Assembly (NCBI GenBank): GCA_963698225.1
Contig: CAVOPW010000018.1
Span: 8,972-72,971 of the forward strand
Origin: an uncultured bacterium
GTDB taxonomy: Bacteria > Zixibacteria > MSB-5A5 > CAIYYT01
DNA length: 64,000 nt
Reading direction: 5' to 3'
This document shows positions 3,629 through 51,100 of this stretch, one piece after another. The notes beneath the pieces were generated by a model. It searched no databases. It saw only the letters and a program-made list of their open reading frames with translations, and had not been told where the DNA came from. The position numbers and the translations under genes are program-made. Numbering within the stretch: position 1 is the stretch's first letter; the number at the start of each line of letters is the position of its first letter.

Positions 3629-5329
3629 CTAATTGGGAATCTGCAACCTCGCGCCATTCTCGGTGGCCATCCGTCGATTCCAGGTCTCGCCGTATCCTGG
3701 CTGCTCCACTTTGGGATTCTGATTCGGCGGATCGGCTGTCTTGATGTTCCCGTCCACGTATTTCAGGAAGAGCTGTTTGTACAGCTCCCGCCAACGGGCG
3801 CACGTTTCGTCGCCCTGCTTGACTGAATACTCGGTCAAGAACTCGACGGCCAGCTTCGGATCCGCCTGATAAAGTTCCTGGGCCGCCTTGTCGATCGCCG
3901 GTCCATAGGTGAGGAACTTGTTTTCAAGTTCACCTTGTGCTGCCTGCACATCCACGATCACTGACGCGTATCGCGTGTAGGCCAGATTGGCCACCTGATT
4001 GAACACCCAGAACCCAGCGTCATCGGACCAGGTCATCATGTTGCCATTTCCGACCGCAAACGAATGTGGCACACGCGTGATCGATCCATACATTGGTGTG
4101 AAGACCGTGCTTTTGGCATCATCGACGCCAAACCACAACAGTGCGCCAATCGGATCGGGCAACCATGAGCGCGATTGCGAAACGAACACGAACCCGGTTT
4201 GTTGTGTCGCCACGGCTCGCTCATGGAAGTACTTCTTGCCGTCGACGGTCCAGGTAAGGGGTCGCCAGCGATAGGGCACCGAATACGGTCCGGCACCCAC
4301 ATCCTTCGCCATATCGAGCGGCGTTCCCTCATAGGCGTTGCGCATAAAAGCGAACATATCGCGGACGGATACCTTCTGTTTCGGCTGGATCCACAGTGGC
4401 ATACGATGAGTGAGATCACGCCCAAGTACATAATCTTCGTATTGACTCATCTCGTCATTCAACTGGCGGAAGATGGCCCACACCCGTGCTTCGCAGAATC
4501 GAACCGATTCGAAATCGACCGGCGCGTAGGTGTCCGAGAAACTGAAGTCTTTGTCCTCGCCACTGAACCACTGCTTGTCCCGGGCAAAACTGATCACATC
4601 CTGTGCGTACACGACCTCGACCGTCGGCTGCTCGATCAGGTCCAGTTGCTGCGACGTGATGGAGACCTGCCCGTCGGCCAAGGGAAACGTACGAATACGA
4701 GCCTGGTTGGCGTGGCCCGAGACACAGCCATCCGGAATCCGCACGGCCACCCACACGGCACCCTTAGCACCCTCTCCTTTGCCGATCATCTCCATAATCC
4801 ACACTTCCTGTGGATCGGAAATCGAAAACGACTCGCCGCTGCTGAAGTACCCGTGTTCGGCAACCAGTTCGACCATGGTCTTGATCGCCTGCCTCGCGGT
4901 GCGCGAACGCTGTAACGCGATATAGATCAAGCTACCGTAGTCCATAACGGCGCCGGCCTGAGACCCGAGTTCCTTCCGGCCTCCGAAAGTGGTCTCACCG
5001 ATCGCTACCTGGAACTCGTTAATGTTCCCGACCACGTTGAATGTCTGCCGGACTTGCGGAATCTGGCCCAGGTGTTTCCCTGTATCCCATTCGCGCACTT
5101 CAAGCATTGAGCCATCGTCCCAGGTCTTCGCCGGCCAATGGTAGAGTTCCCCGTACAGCACATGGGAGTCCGCCGAGTAGCTGATCATCGTTGATCCGTC
5201 CTTGGAGGCGCCCCGGGTGATGAGAAAGTTCGTGCAAGCACGACCTGTTCCCACCCAACCCAAGCAGACTGCCAACCAAAGCCCGCCCCCCCACACGAAT
5301 ACTCGCCTGCTCGACCGTTCCATGTTCAT
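3629..5329 (-). CDS. Peptidase family C69 dipeptidase, secreted
   Basis: Signal peptide, then N-terminal nucleophile C-TNFLIT...; NEFQVAIGETT, HANQARI and CEARVW motifs. Confidence 0.9.
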   Translation of the reverse strand: MNMERSSRRVFVWGGGLWLAVCLGWVGTGRACTNFLITRGASKDGSTMISYSADSHVLYGELYHWPAKTWDDGSMLEVREWDTGKHLGQIPQVRQTFNVVGNINEFQVAIGETTFGGRKELGSQAGAVMDYGSLIYIALQRSRTARQAIKTMVELVAEHGYFSSGESFSISDPQEVWIMEMIGKGEGAKGAVWVAVRIPDGCVSGHANQARIRTFPLADGQVSITSQQLDLIEQPTVEVVYAQDVISFARDKQWFSGEDKDFSFSDTYAPVDFESVRFCEARVWAIFRQLNDEMSQYEDYVLGRDLTHRMPLWIQPKQKVSVRDMFAFMRNAYEGTPLDMAKDVGAGPYSVPYRWRPLTWTVDGKKYFHERAVATQQTGFVFVSQSRSWLPDPIGALLWFGVDDAKSTVFTPMYGSITRVPHSFAVGNGNMMTWSDDAGFWVFNQVANLAYTRYASVIVDVQAAQGELENKFLTYGPAIDKAAQELYQADPKLAVEFLTEYSVKQGDETCARWRELYKQLFLKYVDGNIKTADPPNQNPKVEQPGYGETWNRRMATENGARLQIPN

Positions 5330-5584
5330 AGATTGCTCGCTGTGTCACATCCGGAAAGGGAAGAGCCGCGAGCCGGAATTCCCGATGACTTCTCCGATTA
5401 CGCGGCGCAGACAATATATGGAATCAAAGATGTCAGGCGAAGTGCCTGAATTCAAGCCCGAAGTTCCTAATCATAGCCCGAAGCATGACGGCTTCGGGCT
5501 GCGATAGGAAGCTTCGGGCTGCGATAAGAAGCGGCCAGCCAGGATGCGCAGAAAGCCAGCCCGACCTAGCTGCAGGCGAGAAAA

Positions 5585-5657
5585 TACCCCCTAGGGGAGT
5601 CGAACCCCTGTCTTCGGACTGAGAATCCGATGTCCTGGGCCACTAGACGAAGGGGGC
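5585..5657 (-). tRNA. tRNA-Glu (CTC)
   Basis: Reverse complement GCCCCCTTCGTCTAGTGGCCCAGGACATCGGATTCTCAGTCCGAAGACAGGGGTTCGACTCCCCTAGGGGGTA. Anticodon stem TCGGA/TCCGA with loop TT-CTC-AG; T-loop GTTCGAC; CCA not encoded. Confidence 0.95.
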
Positions 5658-5986
5658 CCTGCTGGAGCGGCCTAGTTTAGCACATTTTTTGCGCCGACAA
5701 GCGTCCGAAACGTCCCGTTCGAGGTAACGGCCAAATCGTGACCGGCAAGCGGCGATTAGTGCACGTTTCAGGGTCGTGCCATATCGGGCCGTTCTCATGG
5801 CCGCACCGACCTCCCATCTGCGAGCGACTAATACGGCGAACAATAATCGAAAAAAAGTGCCCAGTCTACTTGCCTTTCGGCAACGGGACGACAATAAACG
5901 TGGTACGCTTTGTCAAACGTGAATCTGGGGCAATTAGAACAACAGTTCGCATCACGAAAACTTGCAGGAATACAGAATCTGGTGGG

Positions 5987-6015
5987 TTGACGTTGTCCTA
6001 GGGTAGCTATAAGTT
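5987..6015 (+). promoter_or_regulatory. Putative sigma70 promoter for the Cys-rich repeat gene
   Basis: TTGACG-N17-TAAGTT. Confidence 0.55.
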
Positions 6016-6237
6016 ACGTAAGCTATCGGGATTCGGCACCCGCTGGCCCGCCTAATGCGAAGAGTACGCTGGCAAGAGAAAGCACGCACTGAAGCACACC
6101 CGCGGTTCAGGGCAGGAGTTGACTAACAAGGATGGATTCGTGGGCCGCCTCGGCGACTCAAGCCAGCCGATCATTGTTCCTCCCCAAAACGCCGTCGTTA
6201 TTTTTTAACACCGTAGATCTCAGGAAAGGATGGAAGT

Positions 6238-7541
6238 ATGTCAATTCGCCGCACTTGGCTAGCCCTGTGTGCCGTAGCCTGTTTGGCTACGTCCGCAGTG
6301 GCGGACGATTCCTGCTGTGGAACGCCCGTCGAGACTGGTTGTTGTGAAGCACAGCCGGTCATGGTTGAAAAAGTCGTCTGCGTACCCGAATGGGTTACCG
6401 AGACGCGCACGATCAATGTGACGGAGTACAAGCAGGAGCAGCAGACGAAGACCGTCACCCGCTGCAAGCCCGTGACCACGACCAGGGAAGTCACGTATGA
6501 CGTCACCGTGATGGAGCCCGTCACGAAGACGAAGACCTGCACCTACACCGTCTGCAAGCCGCAAATGGAAGCGAAGACCTGTGATTACACGGTTTGCGTA
6601 CCGGTTTACACGGACGTCGAGAAGACCTACACCGTCATGGTGCCGACGTACAAGACGTCGAGAAGACCTACACCGTGATGGTGCCGACGACCGAGACGCG
6701 TCCGGCACTCGCAAAGTTGCCCGCATGGTCCAAGAGACCGTCAACAAGACGGTTACCGTGGACGAAGGCCACTGGGAAACCCAGATGGTTGAAGTCCCCT
6801 GTGCGACCAATGGCGGCAACGGCGGCCGCATGGGCCTGTTGGCCCGATGCCGTCTGCGTCGCGCGTGCAATGACCCGTGTGCGAAGCCGGCTTGCGGTTG
6901 CGACACGGGTTGTGACACCGGTTGTGACACGGGTTGCGGTAATGGGTGCGACGCCGGTTGTGGCGACTGCGCTCCGAAGACCACGACCGTCTGCAAGAAG
7001 GTTGGGTTCCGAACTGCGTGACGAAGGAAGTGCCGGTCACGGTCTGCAGGCAGGTTTGCGAAGATCAGCCGTACGAATACACCGTCACGGTCTGCAAGCC
7101 GGAAACCAAGACCTGCATGGTCAAGGTCTGCACGATGGTACCCCAGACCAAGACCTGCACGGTCAAGGTTTGCAAGTATGAGAAGCAAGTCAAGCAGCGG
7201 ACCTATCAGGTCTGCACAATGGTCCCCGAAACGGTCACCAAGGAAGTGCAGTACACCGTTTGCGAGCCGAAGACGGTCACCAAGACCCGCACTGTGACCG
7301 AGTGCAAGATGGAGCAATCCAAGAGGAAGTCACCTGCACCGTCAGCGTTCCGGTCACCGTGCAGAAAGAAGTCGAAGTGAAGGTTTGCAAGATGGTCCAG
7401 AAGACCGTCATGGTTGCCGCCGGTGACGGTTGCGGTAAGGCCGCTCGTCGTTGTGGTCTGTTCAGCCGTCGCGCTGCGAAGTGCTGTGCCGAGCCGGCTA
7501 CCGGTTGTGGCGCACCGGCTGCGGATTGCGGCTGCAACTAG
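6238..7541 (+). CDS. Secreted Cys/Val/Thr/Lys-rich repeat protein, planctomycete type (frameshifted)
   Basis: Signal peptide MSIRRTWLALCAVACLATSAVA, then ~15-aa YTV(C/M)(K/V)P repeats, a GCDT-repeat centre and a second repeat arm. Assembled from ORFs 6238, 6594, 6581, 6946 and 7260. Confidence 0.8.
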
Positions 7542-7591
7542 TCATGTGAAGTGAGCCGGGGAAGCGACCCAGTTTCCCTGCTTGAAATGGC

Positions 7592-7634
7592 AGAAGCCCG
7601 GCAACCTCGCGGTTGCCGGGCTTCTGTGTTTCTT
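7592..7634. terminator. Strong intrinsic terminator, probably bidirectional
   Basis: AGAAGCCCGGCAACC-TCGC-GGTTGCCGGGCTTCT plus T-rich tail, between convergent genes. Confidence 0.8.
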
Positions 7635-7724
7635 GGTTTGCTTCTCTCGCCGGCACATCGACCTGTGTGACCGACAGCACGCGCAAAAACCGTCGCGTGG
7701 TGACAAGGCGACGAACGCCGGCGG

Positions 7725-9323
7725 CTATTCAGGCACCGCGTTCATCAACAACTGCTCCAACTGCCCGGTACCGCGGGCACACTCGATCAATTTGCCTCGC
7801 AAGTCCGGATCGAGCCAGACCAGCACGCTGCGCACTTGATCCTCTTGAGGAAGCTCCTTCAGCGCCTCAATAGCCGCCATCAACTCAGCCGTGGTGCGTT
7901 CCGCTATGGCGGGATCACTCTGAGCCAGCTGGTTAAGCAGATTTGCTTTGCCAATCAGCCCATGCGCGACATACAGCGGTTCGGACGACGCGGCCAGTTG
8001 GTCATACAGCCGCATTGCTTTCTCAGGTTGGTTATCGGCGCGATAGAACTCGGCCAGTCGCTGCTTGGCCTGCCAAGCGTATACCAGGTTCATCGGGCCG
8101 TTCTTCGGGTCATCAGGCGGAAAGTACTGGTCGACCGCCAGCCACGCTTCTTCGCTATTGAGCTTCATGGCGTGCCAGTACTGCAGCTTGGCCGATTCCT
8201 TCTTTTCGACCACCAGGCCTTGGACCTGGAGCAGATCGGCTGGACGCGAGAACCACGCCCCAGCCGCTCCGAACAGCACGCCGCCAGCCAGTGCCGCAGT
8301 GAACCAGCGGAACAGAGACCTCCGACGGACAGCCATTGACGACGAACGCATCACGGAGGCCAAACGCATCGTCGCTTCAGAACGCCCCTCCGAGAACGCG
8401 AGTAGTTCCGGCGTGTCCCATTCTTCCACTGGAACCGGCCACTGCTCCAGCCCTTCGACATGCAGAGCGCGCAGATCCTTCACGACCTCGGCAGCACTCG
8501 GATAGCGGTCGGCGGGACTCTTGGCCAACAGGCGATGAACGATTCGGCAGAGCCCTTCGACCAAGTCGGGGCGCAGCAGCTCCAGACGTTCCGGCTCGGC
8601 CCGCAGATGCTGAACCGCCACCGCCAACGGGGTCTCGCCGGTAAACGGCGGATGGCCGGCCAGCATTTCAAAACTCGTCACACCCAACGAATACAAGTCG
8701 CTGCGAGGATCGACCGACCGCCCTTCCACCTGCTCCGGACTCATGTACAGTGGCGTTCCCATGGTGACGCCCACCTGTGTCAGATTCACCGCCTGGCCGT
8801 CGTTGGTGACCCGGGCCAGGCCGAAATCGGCGACCTTCACCTCGCCAGTCGTCGCCAGCATGATGTTTTCGGGTTTGATATCGCGATGGATAATCCCTTG
8901 CTGCGCCGCGCGATTCAGCGCAGCGGAGACCTGCCGCATGATGTGCACGGCCATTTTCGAGTCAGCCGAGCGATGGCGTGACAGCCACTGCTTCAGATTC
9001 TGACCCGCCACATATTCCTGGGCAATGAAGTGCACACCGTCCAGGCACCCCACTTCGTGAATTTGGACAATGTTGGCATGCACCAGCGAGGCGGCCGCCC
9101 GCGCCTCGTTATGAAAGCGACGGACATAGGCCTGATCCTCCGCCAGACTCCGCTTGAGGACCTTAAACGCCACCCGCCGGCGAAGGGACATCTGTTCGGC
9201 CAGATACACGTCCGCCATGCCCCCACGCCCTAATCGGCGCAGCAACTGGTAGTCCCCCAGCTTGCGGCCCGACAGATCGGGATCCGGGCCGGCCGGCTCT
9301 TGGGCAAGAGGAGTTTCAGACAT
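7725..9323 (-). CDS. Hanks-type Ser/Thr protein kinase (PknB-like), single membrane span
   Basis: LGRGGMADVY, VAFKVL, HRDIKPEN, DFGLA and GTPLYMSPEQ motifs; hydrophobic segment WFTAALAGGVLFGAAGAW. Confidence 0.95.
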   Translation of the reverse strand: MSETPLAQEPAGPDPDLSGRKLGDYQLLRRLGRGGMADVYLAEQMSLRRRVAFKVLKRSLAEDQAYVRRFHNEARAAASLVHANIVQIHEVGCLDGVHFIAQEYVAGQNLKQWLSRHRSADSKMAVHIMRQVSAALNRAAQQGIIHRDIKPENIMLATTGEVKVADFGLARVTNDGQAVNLTQVGVTMGTPLYMSPEQVEGRSVDPRSDLYSLGVTSFEMLAGHPPFTGETPLAVAVQHLRAEPERLELLRPDLVEGLCRIVHRLLAKSPADRYPSAAEVVKDLRALHVEGLEQWPVPVEEWDTPELLAFSEGRSEATMRLASVMRSSSMAVRRRSLFRWFTAALAGGVLFGAAGAWFSRPADLLQVQGLVVEKKESAKLQYWHAMKLNSEEAWLAVDQYFPPDDPKNGPMNLVYAWQAKQRLAEFYRADNQPEKAMRLYDQLAASSEPLYVAHGLIGKANLLNQLAQSDPAIAERTTAELMAAIEALKELPQEDQVRSVLVWLDPDLRGKLIECARGTGQLEQLLMNAVPE

Positions 9324-9372
9324 GTTGACGTGTTCCAGGTCCCGCAAAAGTCTACCAGTATGTACCGGCCCA

Positions 9373-14867: not shown

Positions 14868-15476
14868 ATGGCCATGAGACTCTCACGATTCATCACCTCG
14901 GCGTCAGTCCTGTTTGGGGCCTGGCAAGGCGGCACTCTGGTGGCCTGGGCATCAGAGGCGGCCGAATCCTCGAACAACAGTGTCAACCCACTGTCGATCG
15001 ATCCCGATCTGGCGTGGTTCACGCTGGTGGTGTTCGTGCTGCTCCTGATGGTTCTGACGAAGTTCGCCTGGAAGCCGCTGATGAAGGGGCTGGAGCAGCG
15101 TGAACAGACGATCGCGAAGATGATTGACGACGCGAAACGCAACAACGAGGAGGCCGCCGCCAAGCTGCTGGCTTACGAGCAGAAACTGGCGGAGGCGGCC
15201 ACTGAGGCGCACGAAGTGGTTGTGCGAGCGCGTCGCGATGGGGTGGCAGCGGGCGAGAAACTGCTCGAAGATGCTCGGGCCAGCGCCGATCGTGAACGGC
15301 AGCGAGCGTTGGCCGATATCGAAGCCGCCAAGAATGCCGCGGTGCAGCAGATTGCGGATCAGAGTGCCAATCTGGCTTTCTCGTTGGCGCGGAAGCTGAT
15401 CCACAAAGAGCTGCGGCCGGAAGACCATGCTGCCCTGATCCGTGAGTCGCTCGAACAGTTTCCCAGTGAGAACTGA
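14868..15476 (+). CDS. atpF: F0 subunit b
   Basis: DPDLAWFTLVVFVLLLMVLTKFAWKPLMKGLEQRE followed by a coiled coil. Confidence 0.95.
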   Translation: MAMRLSRFITSASVLFGAWQGGTLVAWASEAAESSNNSVNPLSIDPDLAWFTLVVFVLLLMVLTKFAWKPLMKGLEQREQTIAKMIDDAKRNNEEAAAKLLAYEQKLAEAATEAHEVVVRARRDGVAAGEKLLEDARASADRERQRALADIEAAKNAAVQQIADQSANLAFSLARKLIHKELRPEDHAALIRESLEQFPSEN

Positions 15477-15481
15477 AATCC

Positions 15482-16108
15482 ATGGCCGAGTCCTCACAAC
15501 GCCCATCCTTTGATAGTTCCCGGGAACGCCTGGGTGCGGTCTACGCCAAGGGGCTGCTCGGTGCCACCGAAGCGGCCGGGGTGACCGAACGCGTCTTGCC
15601 CGAACTCGATTCGCTCGTCGATGATGTGTTGAATCGGGTCCCGAATTTCGAGCAGTTCCTGTCCTCGCCGCGGATGCGACTGGACGAGAAGTTGCGTGTC
15701 TTGGACTTGGCGTTTGCCGGTCGCATGACTCCGCTGCTGCTGGACTTTCTCAAAGTCGTGGCGCGTCGAGGAAGATTGGACTGCCTGCGCGAGGTGCGGG
15801 CCGCCTCACGAAAGCAGCTGAATATCCTGCGCGGTCGGCTGGAGGTAACGGTCCAGACGGCCACGCCGTTGAAGCACGGCACAGCACAGTCAGATCGAAC
15901 AACGGCTGGCCGTGGCCTTGGGACAGGCCGATCGATCTGACGTGCTCGCGTGCGCCCGGAATTGCTGGGCGGATTGCTGGTCCGAGTCGGCGACACGGTC
16001 TTCGATGGCAGCCTCGATAACCGCCTCGAAACCATGCGCGTGCAATTGACGAATCGCACGACGCAAGTGATCCGCGATTCGCTGGAACGATTCCTGATTA
16101 CCGATTAG
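15482..16108 (+). CDS. atpH: F1 subunit delta (frameshift near 15880)
   Basis: AVYAKGLL...FLKVVARRGRL...; C-terminus PELLGGLLVRVGDTVFDGSL in another frame. Confidence 0.9.
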
Positions 16109-28414: not shown

Positions 28415-30599
28415 ATGGCGCGGCCGGAGACAAAACAACTGACGTTTGACGGAATTACCGTACCTGTCCTCCCTTTCGTCCGTACATCTGACGGGCATAT
28501 CATCGAATGGAACCGCGATCGAATTGTCCACCAGATTGTTCAGGAAACAAAGCTTGTCGAGACATTCTACGGCTATGAAGGGGCTGACGAATTGACCGCT
28601 CAGGATATTGCGCTTCAGGTTGAAAACCGCATCAAGAATATGGGTCTTAAATCACTTTCCGGTCCACTCATCCGTGAGATTGTCAACATCACGCTGCTTG
28701 AGAAGGGTATGGTGCAGTACCGCAATGTCTCCACCCGTGTCGGTACTCCGGTTTATGATGCACACCAGATTGATGTCGGGAGGGGATTTGAAGCACACGA
28801 CAACGCAAACCTCCAGGAAAATGCCGAGACTTCACATAAGAAGAAAGCAGACAAAATCTCAAAGGAACAATATCTGCTCCAGCTCCCACCCGACCTTGCC
28901 GATCATCACCTGTCCGGCGAGATGCACATCCATGACCTCGAGTATTTCGGTACGCGCCCGTTCTGCCAGGACTGGGACCTGCGCTATTTTTTCTATTATG
29001 GCCTGATGCCTGACGGCAATGGCACAAAGGCTTCAGTCGCTGGTCCTGCGAAGCGTCCGGAGGTTGCAATCCTCCATGCAGTAAAGGCACTCGGATCCGC
29101 CCAGACTAATTTTGCCGGTGGGCAGGGTTATTACAATTTCCTTACCTTCCTGGCTCCTTATATGGAGGGAATGGGGTATAACGAGATCAAACAGAATATG
29201 CAGATGTTTGTCTATGAAATGACTCAGATGATGGTAGCCCGTGGAGGTCAGCTCGTCTTCTCTTCAATCCAGCTCTCACCGGGTGTGCCGACTCTCTGGC
29301 AGGACAAACCATGCATTTATAAAGGAAAGATCTGGGACGGCAAATCAGCACCCCTTCGCACGTATGGTGAGTTCGAGCGTGAGGTGCGATTGCTCTTTAA
29401 AGCCCTCATGGAGGTAATGCTCGAGGGAGATTACTGGGGCAAACCCTTCAACTTCCCAAAGCCCGAGATCTCTATCGAACCGGATTTCATGAATGAACGT
29501 GAAGAGTTCAACACGAAAAACCCGGACCTTCCAACGTTCCAGGAATTATACCTGATGACCTTTGAACTCGCTTCGAAGTTTGGTACACCCTATTACGATA
29601 ACCAGCTCCGGCGTACCGCGGAGCCGGTAAAGGGATTTCCTGTTACCAGTGCTGTGCATATCAGTTTTCTACGGTGGCAGACAAAGATTCTGATTTTGAT
29701 AAGAAGATGTATTTTGAGGATGGCAGGCATTTCTCGATGGGCTCCTGGCAGGTTGTTTCCGTAAACTGCCCCCGTGCCGCATATAATGCAGAAGGAGATG
29801 ATACCCGCCTTTTTGCAGAACTCAAGGCGCTCATGGATGTCGCGGTGGATATTTTCAAGATCAAACGCCGATGGATGGACCTTATCCGGGCTAACAGCCG
29901 GATGCCATTTGCAATGCAGCGCCCCAAGGACCCGAACACAGGAGAACGTGGCGCACTTGCTGTCGATCTTGAAGGACTGGTATATACGATTGGTGTCGTC
30001 GGTGTCAATGAGATGGTGCAGCACCACACGGGTAAGCAACTCCACGAATCAAAAGAAGCATTCAGGCTTGCCATACGTGCGATGACAGAGATGGAGTCGG
30101 TATGGTCGCGAACTTTCCGCAAAGAATGACATGACCATTGCCCTTGCCCGTACGCCGGGCAGAGACAACCGGGTAAAGGTTTGCGGTTGCCGATCTGCTC
30201 GATCGCCGGTATCACGATTTTGCCGTAAACGTGATTAAGGGAGATATCGAAGAAGGTCTGGAAATGCTGGGCAAGAGCCGTGATCTCCCTATATATTATA
30301 CGAATGGCACCCATGTGGCACCGGGGCAAATGTCCCGCTCACCAAACGCATGGAAATCGAGCATGTATTCTTCCCCATTGTTGATGGGGGTAACATTTTC
30401 CATATCTGGCTGGGTGAAGCACGTCCGGATCCACGTGGACTCATGGACATGGCGATGAAGCTTCTGCCGCAACACCCAGATAGGATATTTTGCATTTACC
30501 CGGGATATTACGGTCTCGCTCCGCCAGTTCCACGAGATACGTTCGTCAAAGAAATCCATTACCCCTTATATCCCATCAGATTTTCCTGTCAAGGTTTAA
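28415..30599 (+). CDS. nrdD: Class III anaerobic ribonucleoside-triphosphate reductase with ATP cone (frameshifted; C-terminal radical domain not seen)
   Basis: ATP cone, MHIHDLEY, FAGGQG, CYQCCAY finger loop, YYTNGTH, FFPIVDGGNIFHIWLGE and GYFAFTRD, then TAA at 30597-30599. Confidence 0.9.
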
Positions 30600-37227: not shown

Positions 37228-38355
37228 ATGGGTACGGGAGATTATTACGATATCCTTGGCATACCCCGTAGTGCTGACGATAAAGAGATTAAGAAGGCGT
37301 ACCGAAACCTTGCACGGAAATTCCATCCCGATGTATGCAAGGATCCGGGTATGAGGAGAAATTCAAGGAGATCAACGAAGCGTATAGTGTGCTTTCCGAT
37401 GATCAGAAGAAAGCACAATACGACAATATGGGCCATGAAACCTACACCAGTGCTTCGAAGGGCTCGTATACGGGTGGAGGCGGGTTCGGGGGAGGTTTCA
37501 GTGCGGACTTTTCCGGCTTTGGCGATATCTTTGATTTCTTTGGCGGTGGTCAGCGACGTTCAGGTCCGCAGCCCGGCGCTGATCTGCTTATGCGCATCCA
37601 GATCAGGTTAGAAGATGCAGTATCCGGAGTGGACCGCGATATCGAAGTGATGCACACAGAACCCTGTTCCGCATGCGGTGGAACCGGAAGTGAAACAAAA
37701 AAACTGAATATATGTCCACGTTGCGGGGGTAGCGGACAGATGAGGCAGGCCGCTCATTCAGTTTTCGGCCAGTTTGTCCGGATGACGACCTGTACCCAGT
37801 GTAACGGGAAGGGAAAAATTACAGAAAAAATCTGCAGGGAATGCCGTGGGTCCGGTCATTCGCGGATGAAAAGAAATATTTCCGTCCATATACCTGCGGG
37901 AATCGATAATGGTATGCGACTCCGCATGGAAGGGTATGGCGAGGCAGGAGATTACGGTGCACCCAATGGCGACCTGTTCATCGAGGTCTATGTCCAGTCC
38001 CATGAACGGTTTACCCGGAACGGGGATAATCTCGAGACGATTATTGAAATCAGTCCTGCGCAGGCAGTACCTTGGTACTTCTGTCGAGATTGAAACGATA
38101 GATAGGCGTCATATTGAGCTGAAAGTCCCCTCCGGTATCCAGTTCAATACTGCCTTGAAAATCGCAGCTGAAGGCGTGAAGCGCCGTGGGAAGCCTGGCG
38201 ATTTGCTGGTCAGGGTAAAAATTGTTACACCAAAGTCTCTTTCCAGTGAGCAGAAAGAACTTTACCAGAAACTTGCAGAGCTTGAAGGCAAAAGCAGCGG
38301 TGCGGGCGGTTTTTTTTCCGGTATAATGGGTGGCAAGAAGAAAAGTAAAAAGTAA
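37228..38355 (+). CDS. dnaJ: Chaperone DnaJ (frameshifted)
   Basis: J domain with HPD, G/F-rich linker and four CxxCxGxG repeats. Confidence 0.96.
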
Positions 38356-40020: not shown

Positions 40021-40590
40021 ATGAGGGAGCTGAAAAATAGTATTCGGCAGATCCTGCGTCAGCGCAAAGATGCAATGACCCCGGAAGAGAGGCTGAATAA
40101 AAGTACAAGGATCTGCTACCATCTTCTGGCACTGATCAGGAATGGCGAAACTGTAATGGTATACACCTCAAAGGAAAAAGAGGTAAATACAGCACACCTT
40201 ATCTCTGCCCTCCTTGAACGCGGGAATCCGATTGTCGTGCCTATAATTGTGAAAGAAGATGTCAGTCTGCGACTCTCTTATCTGAAAGATCTCTCTTCTC
40301 TTGTCCCGAGCACGTTTGGTGTCCCGGAACCTATAGGAAGTGAAATACCGGCCACAGGTCGTGACGTGGATACGATCATCCTTCCCATGCATGGTTTTGA
40401 CCGGACCGGGCGGAGAATCGGGTATGGAGCCGGGTATTACGACAGGTTCCTTGCCAAACACCTGAACTTACGAAAGATCGGGATCGCTTTCACCTGCCAG
40501 GAATATGAAAATCTTCCCGTTGATGAGAATGATATTCCCATGGATTATATCATAACCGAAGAAGGTGTCATGTATCCGGATGGGGAGTGA
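40021..40590 (+). CDS. 5-formyltetrahydrofolate cyclo-ligase
   Basis: KEKEVNT, FGVPEP, IILPMHGFDRTGRRIGYGAGYYDRFL and DIPMDYIITE. Confidence 0.92.
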   Translation: MRELKNSIRQILRQRKDAMTPEERLNKSTRICYHLLALIRNGETVMVYTSKEKEVNTAHLISALLERGNPIVVPIIVKEDVSLRLSYLKDLSSLVPSTFGVPEPIGSEIPATGRDVDTIILPMHGFDRTGRRIGYGAGYYDRFLAKHLNLRKIGIAFTCQEYENLPVDENDIPMDYIITEEGVMYPDGE

Positions 40591-40591
40591 T

Positions 40592-41488
40592 ATGACGGAG
40601 ATCAACGGCACAGAGATTCTCGATACCTATGCAGAGGCATTCCCGGTCTGGCTTTCCCGGGTTATTATTACCGCAGCAACACGAAAATGGGCGTATAAGG
40701 CAGCAGTTGAAGCGACAGGATTTGCGACATCAAAAATCGGATGTCCCTGTGAAGCCGGGATCGAAGGATATCTCCCGAAACATGAGACTCCTGACGGCAG
40801 GGCCGGTGTTTCCATCCTGATTTGTTCAGATAAGAAGACTATGAAATCAAATGTTGCATCCCGGATTTCCCAGTGTATCCTCCCGGCTCCTACAATTTCA
40901 GCCTACGACGGATTTCCTGAAGCCGGGTCACGGTTCTATATCCGTATGCACTATTTCGGGGACACCTATGAGGAGCGGTGCAGCATCAATGGCAGAAAAT
41001 GCTGGAAGATCCCCATCATGGAGGGTAACTATATCGGTGAGGAACGATTTGGGACCGTGAAGGGAATAGCAGGAGGCAATTTTCTCGTTATGGGAAAAAA
41101 CCAGATGTCGGCACTTTCCGGTATTGAGGCAGCAGTTGATGCTATCGCGGGATTAAACGGTGTCATTACCAGTTTTGCAGGAGGAATTGTTGCAAGTGGC
41201 TCGAAGCTGGGCAGTAAAAATTACCGTTTTCCTATGCCCGGCAAGCACAAATCATGTATGGTGCCCGACCCTGAAGGGAAAAATCGGCGATTCGAATGTA
41301 CCTGAAGGGGTAGGATCGGTATATGAGATTGTAATGAACGGAATAAACGAAAATCATATCAGGGAATGCTATGAAAGCGGGCATTCTGACTGCCACAGAA
41401 ACAGGAAAGGTCATGTTTATAGGGGCATCAAATTTTGAGGGAAAACTTGGCCGGTACCAGGTTTTACCTGCATGACCTGTTCAGGTAA
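40592..41488 (+). CDS. ftr: Formylmethanofuran:H4MPT formyltransferase-family protein, divergent paralogue (frameshifted)
   Basis: INGTEILDTYAEAF, EAGIE, ETPDGRAGV, GIAGGNF, GGIVASGSK, ASTNHVWCPTL, VYEIV and ASNFEGKL. Confidence 0.92.
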
Positions 41489-42175: not shown

Positions 42176-45100
42176 TCACCCGGCTTTCTTATAACATATT
42201 TTTGCCTCTTCATGTTTACCTATTGTATCGAGTACTCCACCAATATCCTCCCAGACTTCTTTTCGCCCGGGATCGATTTCCAGCGCATGTTTGAAAGACG
42301 TGAGAGCTTCCTGATACTTTTCCTGCTCCTGCAGGGCACGTCCCCGGTAAATCCATGCATCTACAAAATCAGGCTGGATCGTTAACATCGTGTTGAACGA
42401 TTCCACAGCCTCCTTGTACCGTCCGAGTGCGATAAGTGCACTTCCTTTGGTGAAATAGGCGATGGAAAAGGAGGGGTCGGCGGCAATTGCATGTTCATAT
42501 GATTCGATGGCAGCCTCGCTCTGGAATTGAGCGGCAAGTGCCATCCCATGACGTGTCCAGGCAACGGCATTCTCAGGATCAAACTCAAGACATCTTTCAT
42601 ATGCGGCAAGAGCTTCCGGGTGTTTGCCGAGATCATAGAGCACATTCCCCTTCCCCATCCATGCCTCGGCAGAATTTTCATCCTGTTCCAGAGACTTTAT
42701 CAAAAGTCTCCAGTGCATCTCTGGACATACCAAGTTCAGCCAGGGAAATCGCTTTATGGGACAGCGTCACTGCGCTATGACTGATTTCCAGAGAACAATC
42801 ATATGACTGTATTGCTTCCCTGTGCTGGTCAAGTGCAGCATAAGCCATACCCTCAAAGTAATACAGGTCAGCAGTCCTGTGGTTGTTCTCAATGGCATGC
42901 TCGAATGCCCGTATCGCATCTTCAAAATTGCCCATCTCAAAGAAAGCTCTCCCTTTCCAGAAAATAGCCTGGTTACAGGCAGGGTTCATCTCGAGAGCCC
43001 GTTCGAAGGCAGAGATTGCTGCATCAGGATTTCCAAGGCTGAAAAGAGCCCTGCCTTTCTCATAAACAGCATTCGCATATCCGGGACTGAAAGAGAGCGC
43101 AAGGTCAAATGATGCAATTGCTTCTTCATGCTTACCGCTGTGCATGAGTGCCCGCCCGCGTTCATAGAGCGCGTCCTCGTTTTCCGGATTAATGCCAAGC
43201 GCCGCATCAAAGGCAACAATCGATGCATCATAGTCACCAATGCGGGCAAGAGCAATTCCCTTGTGGTGGTATGCCTCTGTATACCGGTCATTCAATTCAA
43301 TTGCATGATTAAATGCGGTTATCGCGTCGTCATACCGTTCATGCCTGAGGTATGTGACACCCTGATAATAGAAGGCTTCCGGATAATCCTTCCGGAGGGA
43401 AAGTGCCCTGTCGAGTGCTTTAAGTGCTTCATCGTATCTGCCCAGGTGAATCAATGCAATGCCACGGTACAGGTATGGGCAGCTAATGGTGCCTCTTTGG
43501 AAATTGCATGATCATAACAGTCGAGAGCGATATCGTATCTGCCAAGGTTCGCTTCAGCAATACCCTTACTCAGCCATGCTTCCGTAAAAGTGCTTTTTTC
43601 ACTGATTGCCCGGTCAATGCACCTATTGCCTCATGATACATCAAAAGACTCATGAGAGCCTGTCCTTTCTGATAGAACGCCTGGATGCATTTCGGGCTGC
43701 GGCCAGGCAGCTTCGAAGCTTTTAATTGCCTCATGATACCTGCCGAGGCGGGATAAAGAAATCCCGGAATAATAGTATGCCCGGGCGTCTTTTGTATCGA
43801 TAGCCAGTGCCTTGTTGAAGCAGGTTAAGGCATCCAGATCCTTTCCGAGTCCTGAGAGGGCGAATCCCTTTCCGGTCCAGGCAAATGCAGCGGTCGGGCG
43901 CAGACGTAATGCCGAATCAAATGAGGTTATCGCTTCTTCGAACCTGGTCAGCCGGGTCAGGGCAATTCCCTTGTGGTAGAGTGCTTCAATATGTGCCGGC
44001 TCGGCTGCAAGGGCATTTTCAAAGGATACTACTGCCTCGCTGTCCCTTCCCAGTTCAAAGAGTGCCCGTCCCTTGTAATATAATGCTGAAACGAAATCCG
44101 GGCGTATTTCCAGTGCTTTGCTGAATGAGTCATCTGCATCTTCGTAACGGGTCAATGCGAAAAGTGCAGTCCCTTTCAGGTACCATGCGTCAGCACTGGT
44201 CGGGTCAGTCGCGAGGGTTTTCACATATGCTTCAATCGCTTCATGATATCTGCCCAGGTCGGCCATTGCCATACCACGGTGCAGCAATGCTTCAACAGAT
44301 TCAGGTTGTACCTGCAATACCCTGTCAAATGCATCGATTGCATCTTTCTGCCGTCCGGTCGCAACAAGGGACAACCCTTTGTTATAAAAAGCCTGTGCAT
44401 TACCTGCATCAAGTTCGATGTTTTTGTTGAAGGCGGAGATGGCATCTTCATAACGGCCCAGATTTGCAAGGGCACACCCTTTATGGAGATAGACATCAGC
44501 ATAATTTCTCTCAATCCTAAGTGCCTTGTCAAAGGCTTTTACCGCATCACGGTACATGCCAAGAGAAGCGTGTGACTTTCCTTTGTTGTACCATGCCTCA
44601 GCAAAGGAAATATCGGTCTCGAGCGCCCGGTCAAATGATTTGACAGACTTCTTCAAACCTCCCGGTCTGAGCAAGTGCGGCACCCTTATAGAAAAGCGAA
44701 TATGTGTGTTTCGGGTCGAAATTGAGTGCCTGGTCGTAAACGGCAATTGCATCCCCGTTCCGGCCGAGTATGTCCAGTGAACGAGCCTTGCTGTAATACG
44801 CCTCAAAATAATCCGTTTTCAGGGCAATCGCTTTTTCAAATGCTGGAATTGCCAGGTCATGGCTTCCGAGTTTTGCATAAACAACACCCTGCTCGAACCA
44901 GATCTGTGCATCATCAGGAGTTATGGCAAGCAGTCTTCCGAATACTTCTGCAGATTCAGCATATCGTCCCAGCTCGGCAAACGATGATGCGTAAAAGAAA
45001 AGGGCATCCGTATTACCGGCTTCAACAGCGAGTGTTTTTCCCATACACTGAGTGATTCTTCAAATTTACCGAGGTGGAATAAAGCAATACCTTTCTCACA

Positions 45101-48100
45101 TAAAGCACTGGCAGTATCCGGCGAGAGCTCAATCACCCGGTCAAAGGAATCGATTGCCTCCTCAAATTTACCGATGCTTGTAAAAACTCTTCCCCGCTCA
45201 AGGTAAGCCCTGGGATCATCAGGCCTGAATTTTATACTGTTATCGAACGCATCGATTGCATCTTCGGGACGATCCAGATAAGTAGTACTACACCTTTCTC
45301 ATACCAGATCTCCCCATCAGTATTCCGGAGTTCAAGCGCTGCGTCAAAAGCACGTCCCGCCTCATCATATCTACCAAGATTAGCCAGGGATATTCCCCGT
45401 AAATATCTCGGTTCATACAGGTCCGGGAGGACAGATGAGGCATGCGCGAAAATTTCCTGTGCTTCTTCGTGCCTTCCCAGGGTTGAAAGGACCCGACCCT
45501 TCTCATTCAGGAGCTGCCCATTTTCAGGAGCCAGAGTCAGGGCAAGATCAAAAATATGCAGCGCATCGTTATAACGTGCGAGCCGCGAAAGTGCGCATCC
45601 TTCTGAGTAGAGCAATGTGATATTCCGCGGGTCGTTCTGACGTGCTTTTTCAAATGCGGAAACAGCATCCTCGTCTTTGCCCAGATGTTCAAAAGCGACG
45701 CCTTTATGGAACCATGCATCGGAATAGTCTCCAATCCGGGAAAGAACCTCATCGAATGCCAGGAGTGCCTCTTCGTACTTCCTGAGATTTTCGAGGGAAA
45801 GCCCCTTATGGAAGTGGGCTTCGGCAAAATCAGGATCGAGAACAAGAGATCGTGAAAATGAAGATTCCGCTTCCTCATACCTGCCGAGCATCGCATACGC
45901 GAGCCCCTGTTCGAAATGCCCGTCCCTGCTCTGATCATCAATTGCAAGCGCTTGAGAGAATGCAATGACCGCCTCTTCATGTTGTTTCAGCTTTGAAAGC
46001 GTACAAGACCCTTGTAATAACAGGCATCAAATGCACGGTTATCAAGATTGATTGCCCGGTCAAATGCTGTAGCTGCTTCTTCAAATCTCATGAGATTGAA
46101 GAGGATGATGCCCTTGTTAAACCAGGTCTCGTAGCTGCCCGGCATCAAGTTCGAGAGCCGCATCGAATGCCTGGAGTGCCTCATCGGGTCGGTCCAGGTT
46201 TTTAAGGGAGAGACCCTTGTGATAATATATCGGTGCCTGTGATGGTTCAACGGCGATTGCCCGGTCAAATGATACAATGGCATCCTTATCTTTCGAGAGC
46301 CGTGCAAATGCGAGTCCCTTGTCATAGAAGGCACTGACAAACCTGGGATCGATGGTCGTAGCCTGTTCAAAAGCTTCGACTGCCTGGAGATCCTTTCCAA
46401 GTTTTGTCAGGGCGATACCCTTGTCATACCAGGCATTTGCATATCTGGGGTTAATGGCAAGCACCCGGTCATAGGATGAGACGGCCTCTTCATGTCTGCC
46501 AAGTTCTGAGAGTGCGATTGCCCAGTTCGTACCACCCGTAGGCGGAACCGGGTTTTATATCCAGGGCGCGGGTGAGGGCGTCCAGTGCGGGTTCAAACCT
46601 CCTGAGCGAGAGCAGCGTACTTCCTTTCTAGCCACGCCGGTGCACACGCCTCATCGTGCGCAAGAACCTGGTCAAAGCAGGCAATTGCATCTTCCGGGTT
46701 CTGGAGTTCTATGTATGTCTTTTCCCTTCCGGTACCATGCTGTTGTGTTGTCCGGTGCAAGGGAGGTTGTCCTGTCGAATGCTTCGAGTGCCTCTTCAAA
46801 CCGTCCCAGTTCGAAAAGCACCCTCCCCTTGAGCAGCCAGACGTCTGCGACACCGCTTTCAAGGCTAAGTGAGGATTCGAGTGCCCCGAGTGCCTCTTCA
46901 AACCTGTGGAGAGATGCCAGGATGATGCCTTTGTTAAACCAGGTCTCGTAGTTGCCGGCATCGCGTTCGAGAGTGGCATTGAATGCCCCGAGTGCCTCAT
47001 CGGGTCGGTTCAGGTTTTTGAGGGAGAGACCCTTGTGATGATATATCGGAGCCTGTGACGGTTCAACGGCGATTGCCCGGTCGAATGAAGCAATAGCCTT
47101 CTTGTCTTTCGAGAGCCGTGCAAATGCGAGCCCCTTGTCATAAAACGCATGGACAAACCTGGGATCAATAGTCGTAGCCTGTTCAAAAGCTTCGACAGCC
47201 TGGAGATCCTTTCCGAGTTTTGTCAGGGCGATACCCTTGTCGTACCAGGCATTTGCATATCTGGGGTTTAAGGCAAGGACCCTGTCATACGAAGAGACAG
47301 CCTCTTCATGTCTGCCAAGTTCTGAGAGTGCGATTGCCCGGTCAGTACCACCCGTAGGCTGAACCGGGTTTTATATCCAGGGCACGGGTGAGGGCATCCA
47401 GTGCGGGTTCAAACCTCCTGAGCGAGAGCAGCGTACTTCCTTTTCTCAGCCACGCCGGTGCACACGCCTCATCGTGTGAAAGAACCTGGTCAAAGCAGGC
47501 AATTGCGTCTTCCGGGTTCTGGAGTTCTATGTATGTCTTTCCCTTCCGGGACCATGCTGTTGTGTTGTCCGGTGCAAGGGCGGTTGTCCTGTCGAATGTT
47601 TCGAGTGCCTCTTCAAACCGTCCCAGTTCGAAAAGCACCCTTCCCTTGAGCAGCCATACGTCTGCGACACCGCTTTCAAGGCGAGTGAGGATTCGAGTGC
47701 CCCGAGTGCCTCCTCAAACCTGTGGAGAGATACCAGGACGGCTCCTTTGTTAAACCAGGTCTCGAAGCTCGCCGGCATCAAGTTCGAGTGCTGCATCGAA
47801 AGCCAGGAGTGCCTCTTCAGGGTGTTTCAGGTTTTTGAGAGAGAGTCCCTTATGATAATATGCCGGGGCCAGTGAGGATTCAACGGCAATTGCCCGGTCG
47901 AATGAAGCAATGGCATCCTGGTCTTTCGAGAGCCGTGCAAATGCGAGCCCCTTATCATAGAATGCATTGACAAACGTGGGATCGATTGTCGTTGCCTGTT
48001 TAAAATCTTCGATGGCCTGGGCATCCTTGCCGAGTTTTGTCAGGGCGATACCCCTGTCGTACCAGGCATGTGCAAATCCCGGGTTAATGACAAGCACCCT

Positions 48101-51100
48101 GTCATAGGACGAGATGGCCTCTTCATGTCTGCCAAGTTCTGAGAGTGTGATTGCCTGGTTGTACCACCCGTAGGCAGAACCGGGTTCAATATCAAGGGCA
48201 TGGACAAGGGCGTCCAGTGCGGGTTCATACCGGCCGATGGATAATAGCGTACTTCCTTTTCTCAGCCACGCCGCGTGCACACGCCGCATCGTGTGCAAGA
48301 ACCTGGTCAAAGCAGGCAATTGCATCTTCCGGGTTCTGGAGTTCGATGTATGTCTTTCCCTTCCGGTACCATGCCGTCGTGTTGTCAGGTGAAAGGGCGG
48401 TTGTCCTGTCGAATGCTTCGAGTGCATCTTCAAACCGTCCCAGTTCGAAAAGCACCCTTCCCTTGAGCAGCCATACGTCTGCGACATCGCTTTCAAGGCT
48501 GAGTGAGGATTCGAGTGCCCCGAGTGTCTCCTCAAATCTGTGGAGAGATGCCAGGATGGTGCCCTTGTTAAACCAGGTCTCGTAGTCTGCCGGCATCAAG
48601 TTCGAGAGCCGCATCGAATGCAAGGAGTGCCTCATCGGGTCGGTCCAGGTTTTTAAGGGAGAGACCCTTGTGATAATATATCGGTGCCTGTGATGGTTCA
48701 ACGGCGATTGCCCGGTCAAATGATACAATGGCATCCTTATCTTTCGAGAGCCGTGCAAACGCGAGTCCCTTGTCATAGAAGGCACTGACAAACCTGGTAT
48801 CGATGGTCGTAGCCTGTTCAAAAGCTTCGACTGCCTGGAGATCCTTTCCAAGTTTTGTCAGGGCGATACCCTTGTCATACCAGGCATTTGCATATCTGGG
48901 GTTAATGGCAAGCACCCGGTCATAGGATGAGACGGCCTCTTCATGTCTGCCAAGTTCTGAGAGTGCGATTGCCCGGTCGTACCACCCGTAGGCTGAACCG
49001 GGTTTTATATCCAGGGCGCGGGTGAGGGCGTCCAGTGCGGGTTCAAACCTCCTGAGCGAGAGCAGCGTACTTCCTTTGCTCAGCCACGCCGGTGCACACG
49101 CCTCATCGTGCGCAAGAACCTGGTCAAAGCAGGCAATTGCATCTTCCGGATTCTGGAGCTCTATGTATGTCTTTCCCTTTCGGTACCATGCCGTCGTGTT
49201 GTCAGGTGAAATGGCGGTTGTCCTGTCGAATGCTTCGAGTGCCTCTTCAAACCGTCCCAGTTCGAAAAGCACCCTTCCCTTGAGCAGCCATACGTCTGCG
49301 ACACCGCTTTCAAGGCTGAGTGAGGATTCGAGTGCACCGAGCGCCTCACCAAACCGAAGAAGTTTCACCAGGACAGATGCCCGCTGATAGAGTGCAGGAG
49401 CATTATCCGGTTCCTTTTCCAGCAAAGTATTGAATGCATCAAGAGCTTTTTTCATTTTTTCCAAGGCTGACAAACGAGAGACCAGACTGGAATATCGCAT
49501 CTGTCAGGGAATTGTCAAAGATAAAAGCCTGACTGAATGACCGGATTGCCTTTTCGTATTTTGCTGTGGCTTTCAGCACGAGTCCTTTATGATAATGTGC
49601 ATAAGCGTGCTCCGGTACATTTTCAAGAGTATAGTCGAACGCTTTGATGGCGTCTTTGTACCTGCCTGTGCGGAAGAGAGCAAGACCTTTATTATATGCT
49701 GCATCGGTAAAGGAAGGGACCAGGGCAAGAGTTTTTTCATAAGCACTGATGGCGTCATCGTCATACCCGAGTGAAGACAGTGCAAGACCCCGGCCATACG
49801 CTGCATCAGCGCTACCGGATTTCAATTCGAGTGTTTTATCAAATGCCAGAATCGCATCGTTGAAATACTTAAGCTTATTAAGGGCGTGTCCCCTCGCTAA
49901 CCAGATGTCAGGATCGTCCGGAGTAAGTTCGATTGAACGGTTCAGGGAAACCAGAGCGTCTTTGTTGCGTCCGGCTGCCATGAGGGCATTCCCGCGGTGG
50001 TAGTGGAGATAACCATTTTCAGGTCCGATGGCAAGTGCCAGATCGAATGCTGCAACCGACTCCTCATATCGCCCGATAGTCTCGAGTGCGACTCCTTTTT
50101 TGTATGCTGCGTTCTGCATACCCGGGCTGAGTTCAAGGGCACGTTCAAACGCAGGCACCGATTCATCAAACCGTTTTAGTGTACAAAGGACATCTGCTTT
50201 ATTGTACCATGCGACTGCACATGAATCGTCCAGAGACGATGCCATCCCGAACGCTTCAAGGGCATCCTCAAACAGTGACATCTGCTTATAGCTGATTCCG
50301 CGGTAATACCATGCAGTGGTATGCTGTTTGTCAAGGACTATCACCTTATCAAACGCTGAGACTGCCTCTTCCCACCGTTTGAGGTGAAGCAGGGCTTTTC
50401 CACGATGAATAAGTGCAAAAATGTTCTGGGGTTCACGCCTTAGCGATTTCCCGAAAGATTCAACTGCTTCCTTAAATCGGAACAACTTATAGAGTGAATA
50501 CCCCTTGCATGAAAGGAGACCTGAATCCGTGGTGTCCTGTTCCAGTGCCCTGTCCAGTGCAATTACTGCGTCTTGGTACCGGGCAAGTTTTACTAAAGCA
50601 ACACCCCTTCCCCGGTGTGCCCGGGTATTTTCCGGATCAAGGAGGAGAGTTGCGTCGAACTCTCTGATTGCGTCCTCATACCGGGCAATCTTTTCAAGAA
50701 TCTCACCCTTGACAAGATGGGATACCACGTCGGTTGAATCAAGTTCGAGGGCGCGATCGAACGAAGCGATCGCATCCTCATTTCTGTCGAGCCGGGAGAG
50801 CACCAGTCCCTTTTCAGCATGTAAACGGGAGTTATCCAGACCCATCTCAATACATGCATTGAATGCATCCAGGGCAGATTTCCGGTTGGCCGAGATGGGA
50901 ATATGAAAGCCCCTTCTCAAAAAGGATCTCACCGGAATCAGGTTTGAGAACAAGAACGGCATCGAATGCTTCTATTGCCCGGTCGTATTTTTTAATGATG
51001 AAAAAAGATCTCCCCATCTCTTTCCAGGCTTCTATTCGGGATGGGTTAAGAGCCACGGAACGGGTGAAAGCCTCAATGGCATCAGAATATTGACGTAAAC

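Follow-up and report, generated by a model that had tools for sequence, protein, structure and literature searches.

The DNA analysed here (hereafter the window) is a stretch of 64,000 nucleotides from contig C18 of bin G000 (G000:C18:8972-72971), and this study concerns a gene at window positions 6238-7541 on the forward strand. No single open frame covers this interval; in a three-frame translation one coherent protein emerges only across four frame changes, at which the frame (position modulo 3) passes from 1 to 0, 2, 1 and again to 0, every change being a 1-bp deletion. Reading through the four sites, a repair that an earlier annotation made from the letters alone (the sequence-only reading) had called for, yields a product of 435 amino acids (aa) containing 15.9% Thr, 15.4% Val and 10.3% Cys, in which Leu (1.6%) and Phe (0.2%) are nearly absent. 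Judged by its sequence, the gene is an orthologue of a conserved Pirellulaceae gene of the YTV family (Pfam PF07639), a kind already known. Across the family members compared, two repeat arms of matched length pair with each other in antiparallel orientation.

The read-through protein starts with a putative signal peptide (residues 1-22, 6238-6303 including the start codon; MSIRRTWLALCAVACLATSAVA, followed by DD, the junction reading ...AVA/DD), which was judged from the sequence and whose RR, hydrophobic core and A-x-A motif are kept among homologues. A Cys-rich N-terminal cap follows (6304-6360; DDSCCGTPVETGCCEAQP, within DDSCCGTPVETGCC), in which conservation reaches 81-91% at Cys columns 27 and 35. 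The N arm (6361-6799) is built from 14-residue YTV repeats, about 147 residues in total, with YTVCKP, YTVMVPT and DVEKT among its motifs, and was recognised from its Pfam YTV match, its period of 14 and a 41-bp tandem repeat (6613-6698); frameshift sites 1 and 2 are located in this arm, site 1 within the tandem repeat. Next comes a central Cys/Gly-rich loop (6800-6979; VPCATNGG...RCRLRRAC...CGCDTGCDTGCDTGCGNGCDAGCGDC), which would form the closed end of the hairpin described below; its CGCDTGCDTGCDTGCGNGCDAGCGDC part is encoded by a 12-bp tandem repeat (6896-6936). The C arm (6980-7418; VKVCTMVPQTKTCT...), again about 147 residues of 14-residue repeats, was delimited by Pfam YTV, by periods of 14, 28 and 42 and by covariation with the N arm, and holds frameshift sites 3 and 4. 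A Cys-rich C-terminal tail and the stop codon TAG (7539-7541) complete the gene (7419-7541), all of these parts lying on the forward strand, and the mature chain has roughly 43 cysteines. The signal peptide, the Cys-rich cap and tail, the central Gly/Cys knot and the scarcity of Leu and Phe had all been noticed in the sequence-only reading, and are all present in the read-through protein. Its repeat arms are found as well, although they measure about 147 instead of ~130 residues and the period is 14, not ~15, residues in both.

All four frame pieces match Pfam YTV, for which the gathering score is 21 bits: two of them exceed this cut-off (piece 1, 52.9 bits; piece 3, 25.6 bits) and the remaining two match weakly (E 0.022 and 0.055). 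The read-through protein scores 75.9 bits over four stretches. At E<=0.01 no Pfam family besides YTV was found in the read-through protein or in its best homologue, NCBIfam models gave no match to the YTV protein, and a profile search of PDB sequences returned 0 matches at E<=0.1. The homologue search that had been proposed earlier, run against 5.8 billion proteins, retrieved 588 homologues, of which P0001 from a Pirellulaceae metagenome-assembled genome (MAG) is the best, an intact protein of 437 aa with 59% identity and 95% coverage of the query. When 1.84 billion cluster representatives (50% identity) were searched with a YTV profile, 1722 clusters were obtained at E<=1e-3, 363 of them at E<=1e-30, and 304 YTV loci were confirmed in species-representative genomes; the 80 listed of these 304 all belong to MAGs of Planctomycetia (Pirellulaceae, Planctomycetaceae, Thermoguttaceae and Gemmataceae). 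The window also shares its gene order with locus L005, the genome of P0001, in both of which a tRNA-Glu gene, the YTV gene, a convergent kinase gene, a gene for a 276-aa protein, a DUF4912 gene and the atp operon follow one another. The Pkinase gene lies downstream of YTV in L005 and L006, and kinase orthologues with 61-73% identity occupy the same position in the seven closest loci (L016-L022).

Cysteine-rich YTV proteins are major components of the walls of Rhodopirellula baltica, Gemmata obscuriglobus and Tuwongella immobilis boiled in sodium dodecyl sulfate (SDS) (PMC8567305, PMC5287468, PMC12673574), and according to published family descriptions they are confined to the class Planctomycetia. 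In Planctopirus limnophila a YTV gene is essential, and the protein is thought to tune wall rigidity via its cysteines (PMC10632474). The window protein shares with these wall proteins the above-cut-off repeats, about 10% Cys, a signal peptide and relatives restricted to Planctomycetia, together with the succession of cap, arm, Cys loop, arm and tail that recurs in hundreds of homologues; the gene differs from other YTV genes by four 1-bp deletions in the assembled sequence, so that the uninterrupted reading frame of intact family members is lacking. The sequence-only reading had missed that this is the known YTV family (PF07639; PMC8567305, PMC5287468, PMC12673574, PMC10632474), yet the secreted, Cys/Val/Thr-rich envelope building block that it envisaged agrees with the role already known for the family. 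The resemblance to eukaryotic articulins and alveolins that it had suggested fails in the Pfam comparison, which gives YTV only: Val/Pro-rich short repeats are common to both, but the likeness is compositional, and the YTV repeat is a 14-residue Thr/Val/Cys beta unit of an exported bacterial protein.

A functional parallel is offered by chlamydial OmcA and OmcB, exported cysteine-rich envelope proteins of the Planctomycetes-Verrucomicrobia-Chlamydiae superphylum, whose disulfide cross-links are believed to make the envelope more rigid. The analogy is one of function only; repeat structure and fold differ from those of the YTV protein, which is not a member of that group.

Structure prediction, which had likewise been advised, was carried out with AlphaFold2 (AF2) on two intact homologues. 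For the intact orthologue P0001, with 95 homologues, the mean predicted local distance difference test score (pLDDT) was 71.5 and the predicted template modelling score (pTM) 0.27. The model contains two uninterrupted beta segments, residues 41-187 and 247-393, with pLDDT of 82-92; the only breaks (176-177 and 257-258) and the dips in confidence (101-120 and 311-330) are mirrored about i+j~434, and cap, loop (188-246) and tail are disordered. In P0098, a homologue of a shorter length class, the segments are 37-156 and 185-304 (arm pLDDT 93-96), which mirror one another about 341. End regions and loop equivalents have low pLDDT in both models. Since no turn interrupts either arm, each model represents one giant hairpin and not two.

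Covariation between the arms was measured as mutual information (MI) with average product correction (APC) on our own alignment of 108 sequences (effective number of sequences, Neff, 80). The inter-arm MI-APC signal is strongest for residue pairs on the antidiagonal i+j=434 (robust z 16); its sole side peaks, at 432 and 436, give the pattern characteristic of an antiparallel ladder. Fifty of the 60 strongest covarying pairs fall on this ladder and are spread along its whole length, and the top pairs include charge swaps such as E-R for R-E at 110/326 and R/K-E for E-K/R at 76/360. Parallel pairing of the arms and hairpins within an arm were also considered and rejected, as they gave no covariation signal (z <=3.2). 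An alignment artefact was rejected as the source of the covariation, as a z of 10 persists in 26 ungapped sequences of identical arm length.

The arms also change length together. Across 141 family members the spans of N arm and C arm are correlated with r=0.988, and they shift jointly by 14 (112/101, 126/115, 140/129, 154/143 and ~168/156); loop length, which varies from 12 to 130 residues, is uncorrelated (r=0.05). In both arms odd positions carry Thr, Pro and Cys and even positions Val plus charged residues, Pro making up 11.6% of odd versus 0.1% of even positions in the arms. This composition fits a two-faced ribbon with Pro only in non-hydrogen-bonded pairs. The antiparallel pairing of the arms into a ribbon tens of nm long, as first proposed from the sequence, is thus borne out by the predicted models with their long-range arm pairing, by the covariation at i+j=434 and by the concerted arm lengths.

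A Foldseek search of the PDB with the predicted fold gave no real counterpart (TM-scores <=0.12, probabilities <=0.28). The best matches, 6qz9, 5ec5 and 6rb9 (stems of pore-forming toxins and the tail of phage phi29), each contain an exceptionally long antiparallel beta-hairpin; those hairpins have 30-60 residues per strand, assemble into barrels and have no sequence relation to YTV. Neither the giant-hairpin architecture nor any structural model of YTV proteins is described in the literature that was searched.

The cysteines do not follow the pairing of the arms. In the register in which the arms pair, an N-arm cysteine has a C-arm cysteine opposite it in only 0.3-3% of cases; the mature proteins contain 31 cysteines on average, the number being even in only 59% of 107 proteins, and Cys-Cys co-occurrence is dominated by clade effects. 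Disulfide staples across the arms, which the sequence-only reading had proposed, were therefore rejected as a general rule, facing cysteines being almost absent and the Cys count often odd, although a few Cys pairs confined to particular clades (163/273 and 40/396, for example) may occur. Most YTV cysteines belong to the Thr/Pro face or to the end clusters. As few of them have a cysteine opposite in the other arm, they are free to link ribbons together or to other wall proteins, and the arm and end cysteines most likely serve to cross-link molecules to one another, which agrees with the SDS resistance reported for the walls of homologues.

The following picture brings these data together. The YTV protein would be expressed and directed by its Sec-type signal peptide to the cell envelope, and a wall location is suggested for the window protein by analogy with the homologues in the literature. 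There its two length-matched arms of ~147 residues would zip up antiparallel into one two-stranded beta-ribbon of roughly 45-50 nm (at about 3.3 Å per residue), with Val and cross-strand salt bridges on one face and Thr, Pro and Cys on the other. The Cys/Gly-rich loop would close one end of the ribbon, and the Cys-rich N-terminal cap and C-terminal tail would meet at the other. Presumed intermolecular disulfides could then produce an SDS-resistant, cross-linked protein layer of the kind already attributed to YTV proteins. Taken as a whole, namely as a YTV orthologue encoding an exported hairpin wall protein, with deletions that are assembly errors and on a contig that was binned wrongly, we consider this explanation likely.

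Taken alone, the window gene adds little beyond a further YTV orthologue from a flawed assembly, and it is the family-level picture that counts. How the rigid, largely proteinaceous planctomycete wall is built is an old open question, and YTV proteins are its best-documented components. The covariation ladder of about 147 rungs, the 14-residue steps in arm length and the non-facing cysteines provide a concrete, testable architecture in which length-calibrated beta-hairpin rods are cross-linked via end knots and one cysteine-bearing face. For the family at large we lean, with some reservation, towards YTV wall proteins, that of the window included, being single-chain rods (giant hairpins) of roughly 35-60 nm whose length changes in steps of 14 residues (about 4.7 nm), always in both arms, and whose cysteine-rich end knots and exposed row of arm cysteines would weave the wall.

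Several points weigh against a closed hairpin as the unit of this architecture. The pTM values are low (0.27 for P0001 and 0.32 for P0098), the pairing of the arms in the models was deduced from mirrored DSSP and pLDDT patterns, and covariation is blind to the difference between an intramolecular hairpin and antiparallel N-arm/C-arm pairing of two chains. The N arm of one chain might instead pair with the C arm of a second one, and the product would be an antiparallel dimer or an open-ended polymer; the covariation and the matched arm lengths fit such an arrangement equally well in the same register, the loop is long and variable over the range given above, and a lone two-stranded ribbon of 147 residues is unlikely to be stable. 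However, in the AF2 monomer models the hairpin is closed and confidence in the arms is high, both models show a mirrored beta-bulge 10-11 residues from the loop, and intramolecular pairing is kinetically simpler, so that pairing between molecules appears unlikely to us. A different role for the cysteines has also to be weighed, in which the clusters of cap, loop and tail would mainly bind metal, as in metallothioneins, and the protein would serve to buffer metal in the periplasm, with the beta structure as its scaffold. Homologues are major structural components of SDS-boiled wall fractions (PMC5287468, PMC8567305), both the length of the loop and the number of cysteines vary widely, and metal-handling genes were not noticed adjoining the YTV gene; even considering that the CxxxC repeats (CGCDTGCDTGCDTGCGNGCDAGCGDC) resemble metal-thiolate clusters and that the Cys-cluster regions are low in pLDDT, a metal buffer is very improbable. 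Cross-linking between hairpin rods is thus the preferred reading for the cysteines.

The four deletions in the window gene have also to be accounted for. One base is missing at each of the following sites (marked ^, forward strand): site 1 at 6652-6654 (TACAA^GACGTC), where the 41-bp repeat unit is one short of 42 (14 codons); site 2 at 6701-6703 (ACGCGT^CCGG), where the closest relative of the window, L004, has an A; site 3 at 7001-7003 (AAGGT^TGGG), with C in L004; and site 4 at 7317-7319 (GAGCAA^TCC), with G in L004. The sites were located from the reading frames and the alignment with L004, and for site 2 also from homologues. L004 (ENA ERZ25039527 contig_47526), with 86-90% DNA identity to the window, has the extra base at 4/4 sites in a global alignment. 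Being very noisy itself (76 gap openings in 5 kb, with kinase, DUF4912 and YTV all called as fragments), it was used solely for these four sites and for substitutions. Its own protein, P0006, is a frame-scrambled YTV product in a public protein collection. Programmed frameshifting was rejected, as slippery heptamers were not seen by eye at the four sites and relatives are in frame.

The four 1-bp deletions most likely arose as consensus errors, the metagenome assembly being error-prone, and probably do not reflect a real inactivation. What tells against such errors is their distribution, four frameshifts in 1.3 kb compared with 0-1 in about 12 kb of flanking kinase and atp genes, an over-dispersion that would require errors to be locally concentrated. 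The gene could alternatively be a real, recent pseudogene, the organism having lost the YTV protein via four independent 1-bp deletions: all four lie within 1.3 kb and go in the same direction, the adjacent kinase, 276-aa and DUF4912 genes and most atp genes are intact, and between window and L004 the ratio of nonsynonymous to synonymous substitution rates (dN/dS) is higher in YTV (0.185) than in the kinase (0.069). The YTV ratio is nevertheless far under 1, and selection has thus acted through almost all of the divergence between window and L004. Moreover, the YTV gene contains no nonsense codons, in-frame stops or larger lesions and has lost no repeat, read-through restores exactly the arm lengths (140/129) of the most common class of the family, and intact orthologues are present in all close relatives. 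Housekeeping genes are split in the same assembly as well: nrdD (28415-30126, forward strand) lies in two frames covering profile positions 1-250 and 258-398, dnaJ (37293-38352, forward strand) in two frames covering DnaJ_C 3-97 and 97-152, and atpD on contig C19 of the same bin is also split. Two long stretches of tetratricopeptide repeats in the window (47750-50971 and 52820-56367) likewise pass through successive overlapping frames as though split, which again speaks for errors in the assembly. According to a crude frame-tracking model, frame changes are denser in C18 and contig C13 (11.7 per 10 kb) than in most other contigs (about 6 per 10 kb). With the YTV gene of P. limnophila being essential (PMC10632474), real loss is the improbable option. 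Frameshifted genes of this genome should not be taken as pseudogenes without reads.

The distribution of YTV genes among the relatives of the bin pointed to the origin of the contig. Neither P0001 nor the YTV profile had a match in 30 relatives of G000, 12 of them from the same genus. This absence did not demonstrate a gain of the gene specific to the lineage; it led on to evidence that C18 is foreign to the bin. The window atpA-atpD genes are only 67-72% identical to those of these relatives, as is the case for class-level relatives, whereas a second atp locus of the bin (G000:C19:121800-125700) reaches 79-85% over its full length against same-genus genomes. C18 and C13 are tetranucleotide outliers by about 3 standard deviations on the second principal component, and the codon model of the bin fits both poorly (coding fraction 0.70 and 0.63, respectively, versus about 0.83). 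C18 was therefore probably wrongly binned in G000, and C13 looks likewise; the single YTV gene in this bin thus says little about the source organism.

The window further encodes a formylmethanofuran-tetrahydromethanopterin formyltransferase (40556-41302, forward strand; FTR, and FTR_C 1-68 of 149), which adjoins a 5-formyltetrahydrofolate cyclo-ligase gene and whose C-terminal lobe is possibly cut short by another frameshift. Formyltransferases of the tetrahydromethanopterin pathway are typical of planctomycetes.

Upstream of the YTV gene, a candidate promoter was found in our own scan (5987-6013, forward strand), consisting of TTGACG (5987-5992), a 15-nt spacer and TATAAG (6008-6013), from which the leader would be about 220 nt long. 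Both hexamers are kept in L004 and occur in the more distant L005 as TTGACG and TATAGG. The consensus promoter claimed in the sequence-only reading holds up in so far as its near-consensus hexamers are conserved, but not as a consensus element, since the 15-nt spacer is non-canonical and a sigma-70 scan upstream of the YTV gene called no promoter. A Shine-Dalgarno-like GGAAAGGA (6223-6230, forward strand) is located 7 nt ahead of the ATG, and the block CTCAnGAAAGGA around this ribosome-binding site (GAAAGGA) is kept in L004 and L005. Further blocks conserved in these two loci are scattered over ~370 nt 5' of the YTV start (5860-6237, forward strand), namely CTTGCCTT...CAATAAACGT, TTCGCATCACG, TTGACG-15-TATAAG-GTTACnTAAGC and AGTTGACT. 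This conserved upstream stretch could be a long regulated leader or contain alternative promoters. Rfam models applied to 5200-7800 matched the tRNA-Glu gene only and no known leader RNA. That gene (anticodon CTC; 5585-5657, reverse strand; 60 bits) lies in a stretch of ~120 nt that is 89.5% identical to L005, compared with 68-74% for coding regions there.

Downstream, the strong terminator predicted earlier is evident at 7590-7637 (forward strand) as an intrinsic terminator with a 17-bp stem containing 11 GC pairs (7590-7627) and a T-rich tail. It is positioned between the YTV gene and the convergent Ser/Thr protein kinase gene (7725-9347, reverse strand), an open reading frame (ORF) that is a conserved neighbour of the YTV orthologue group.

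Some other genes of the window have unusual reading frames. The ORF for ATP synthase delta (oligomycin sensitivity-conferring protein, OSCP; 15470-15940, forward strand) covers profile positions 4-115 of 172 only, and its C-terminal part may be encoded in another frame. In dnaJ, the start of the J-domain (profile positions 1-32) is missing from the ORF. Stretches encoding tetratricopeptide repeats (TPR) occupy 4 and 6 overlapping frames at 47750-50971 and 52820-56367, respectively, both on the reverse strand, and every shift there corresponds in direction to a +1 insertion; in the YTV gene, by contrast, all are deletions. A third long TPR stretch (42179-45059, reverse strand) also runs through several overlapping frames. 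Two readings fit the TPR stretches, namely giant TPR proteins disrupted by errors or TPR genes arranged in series.

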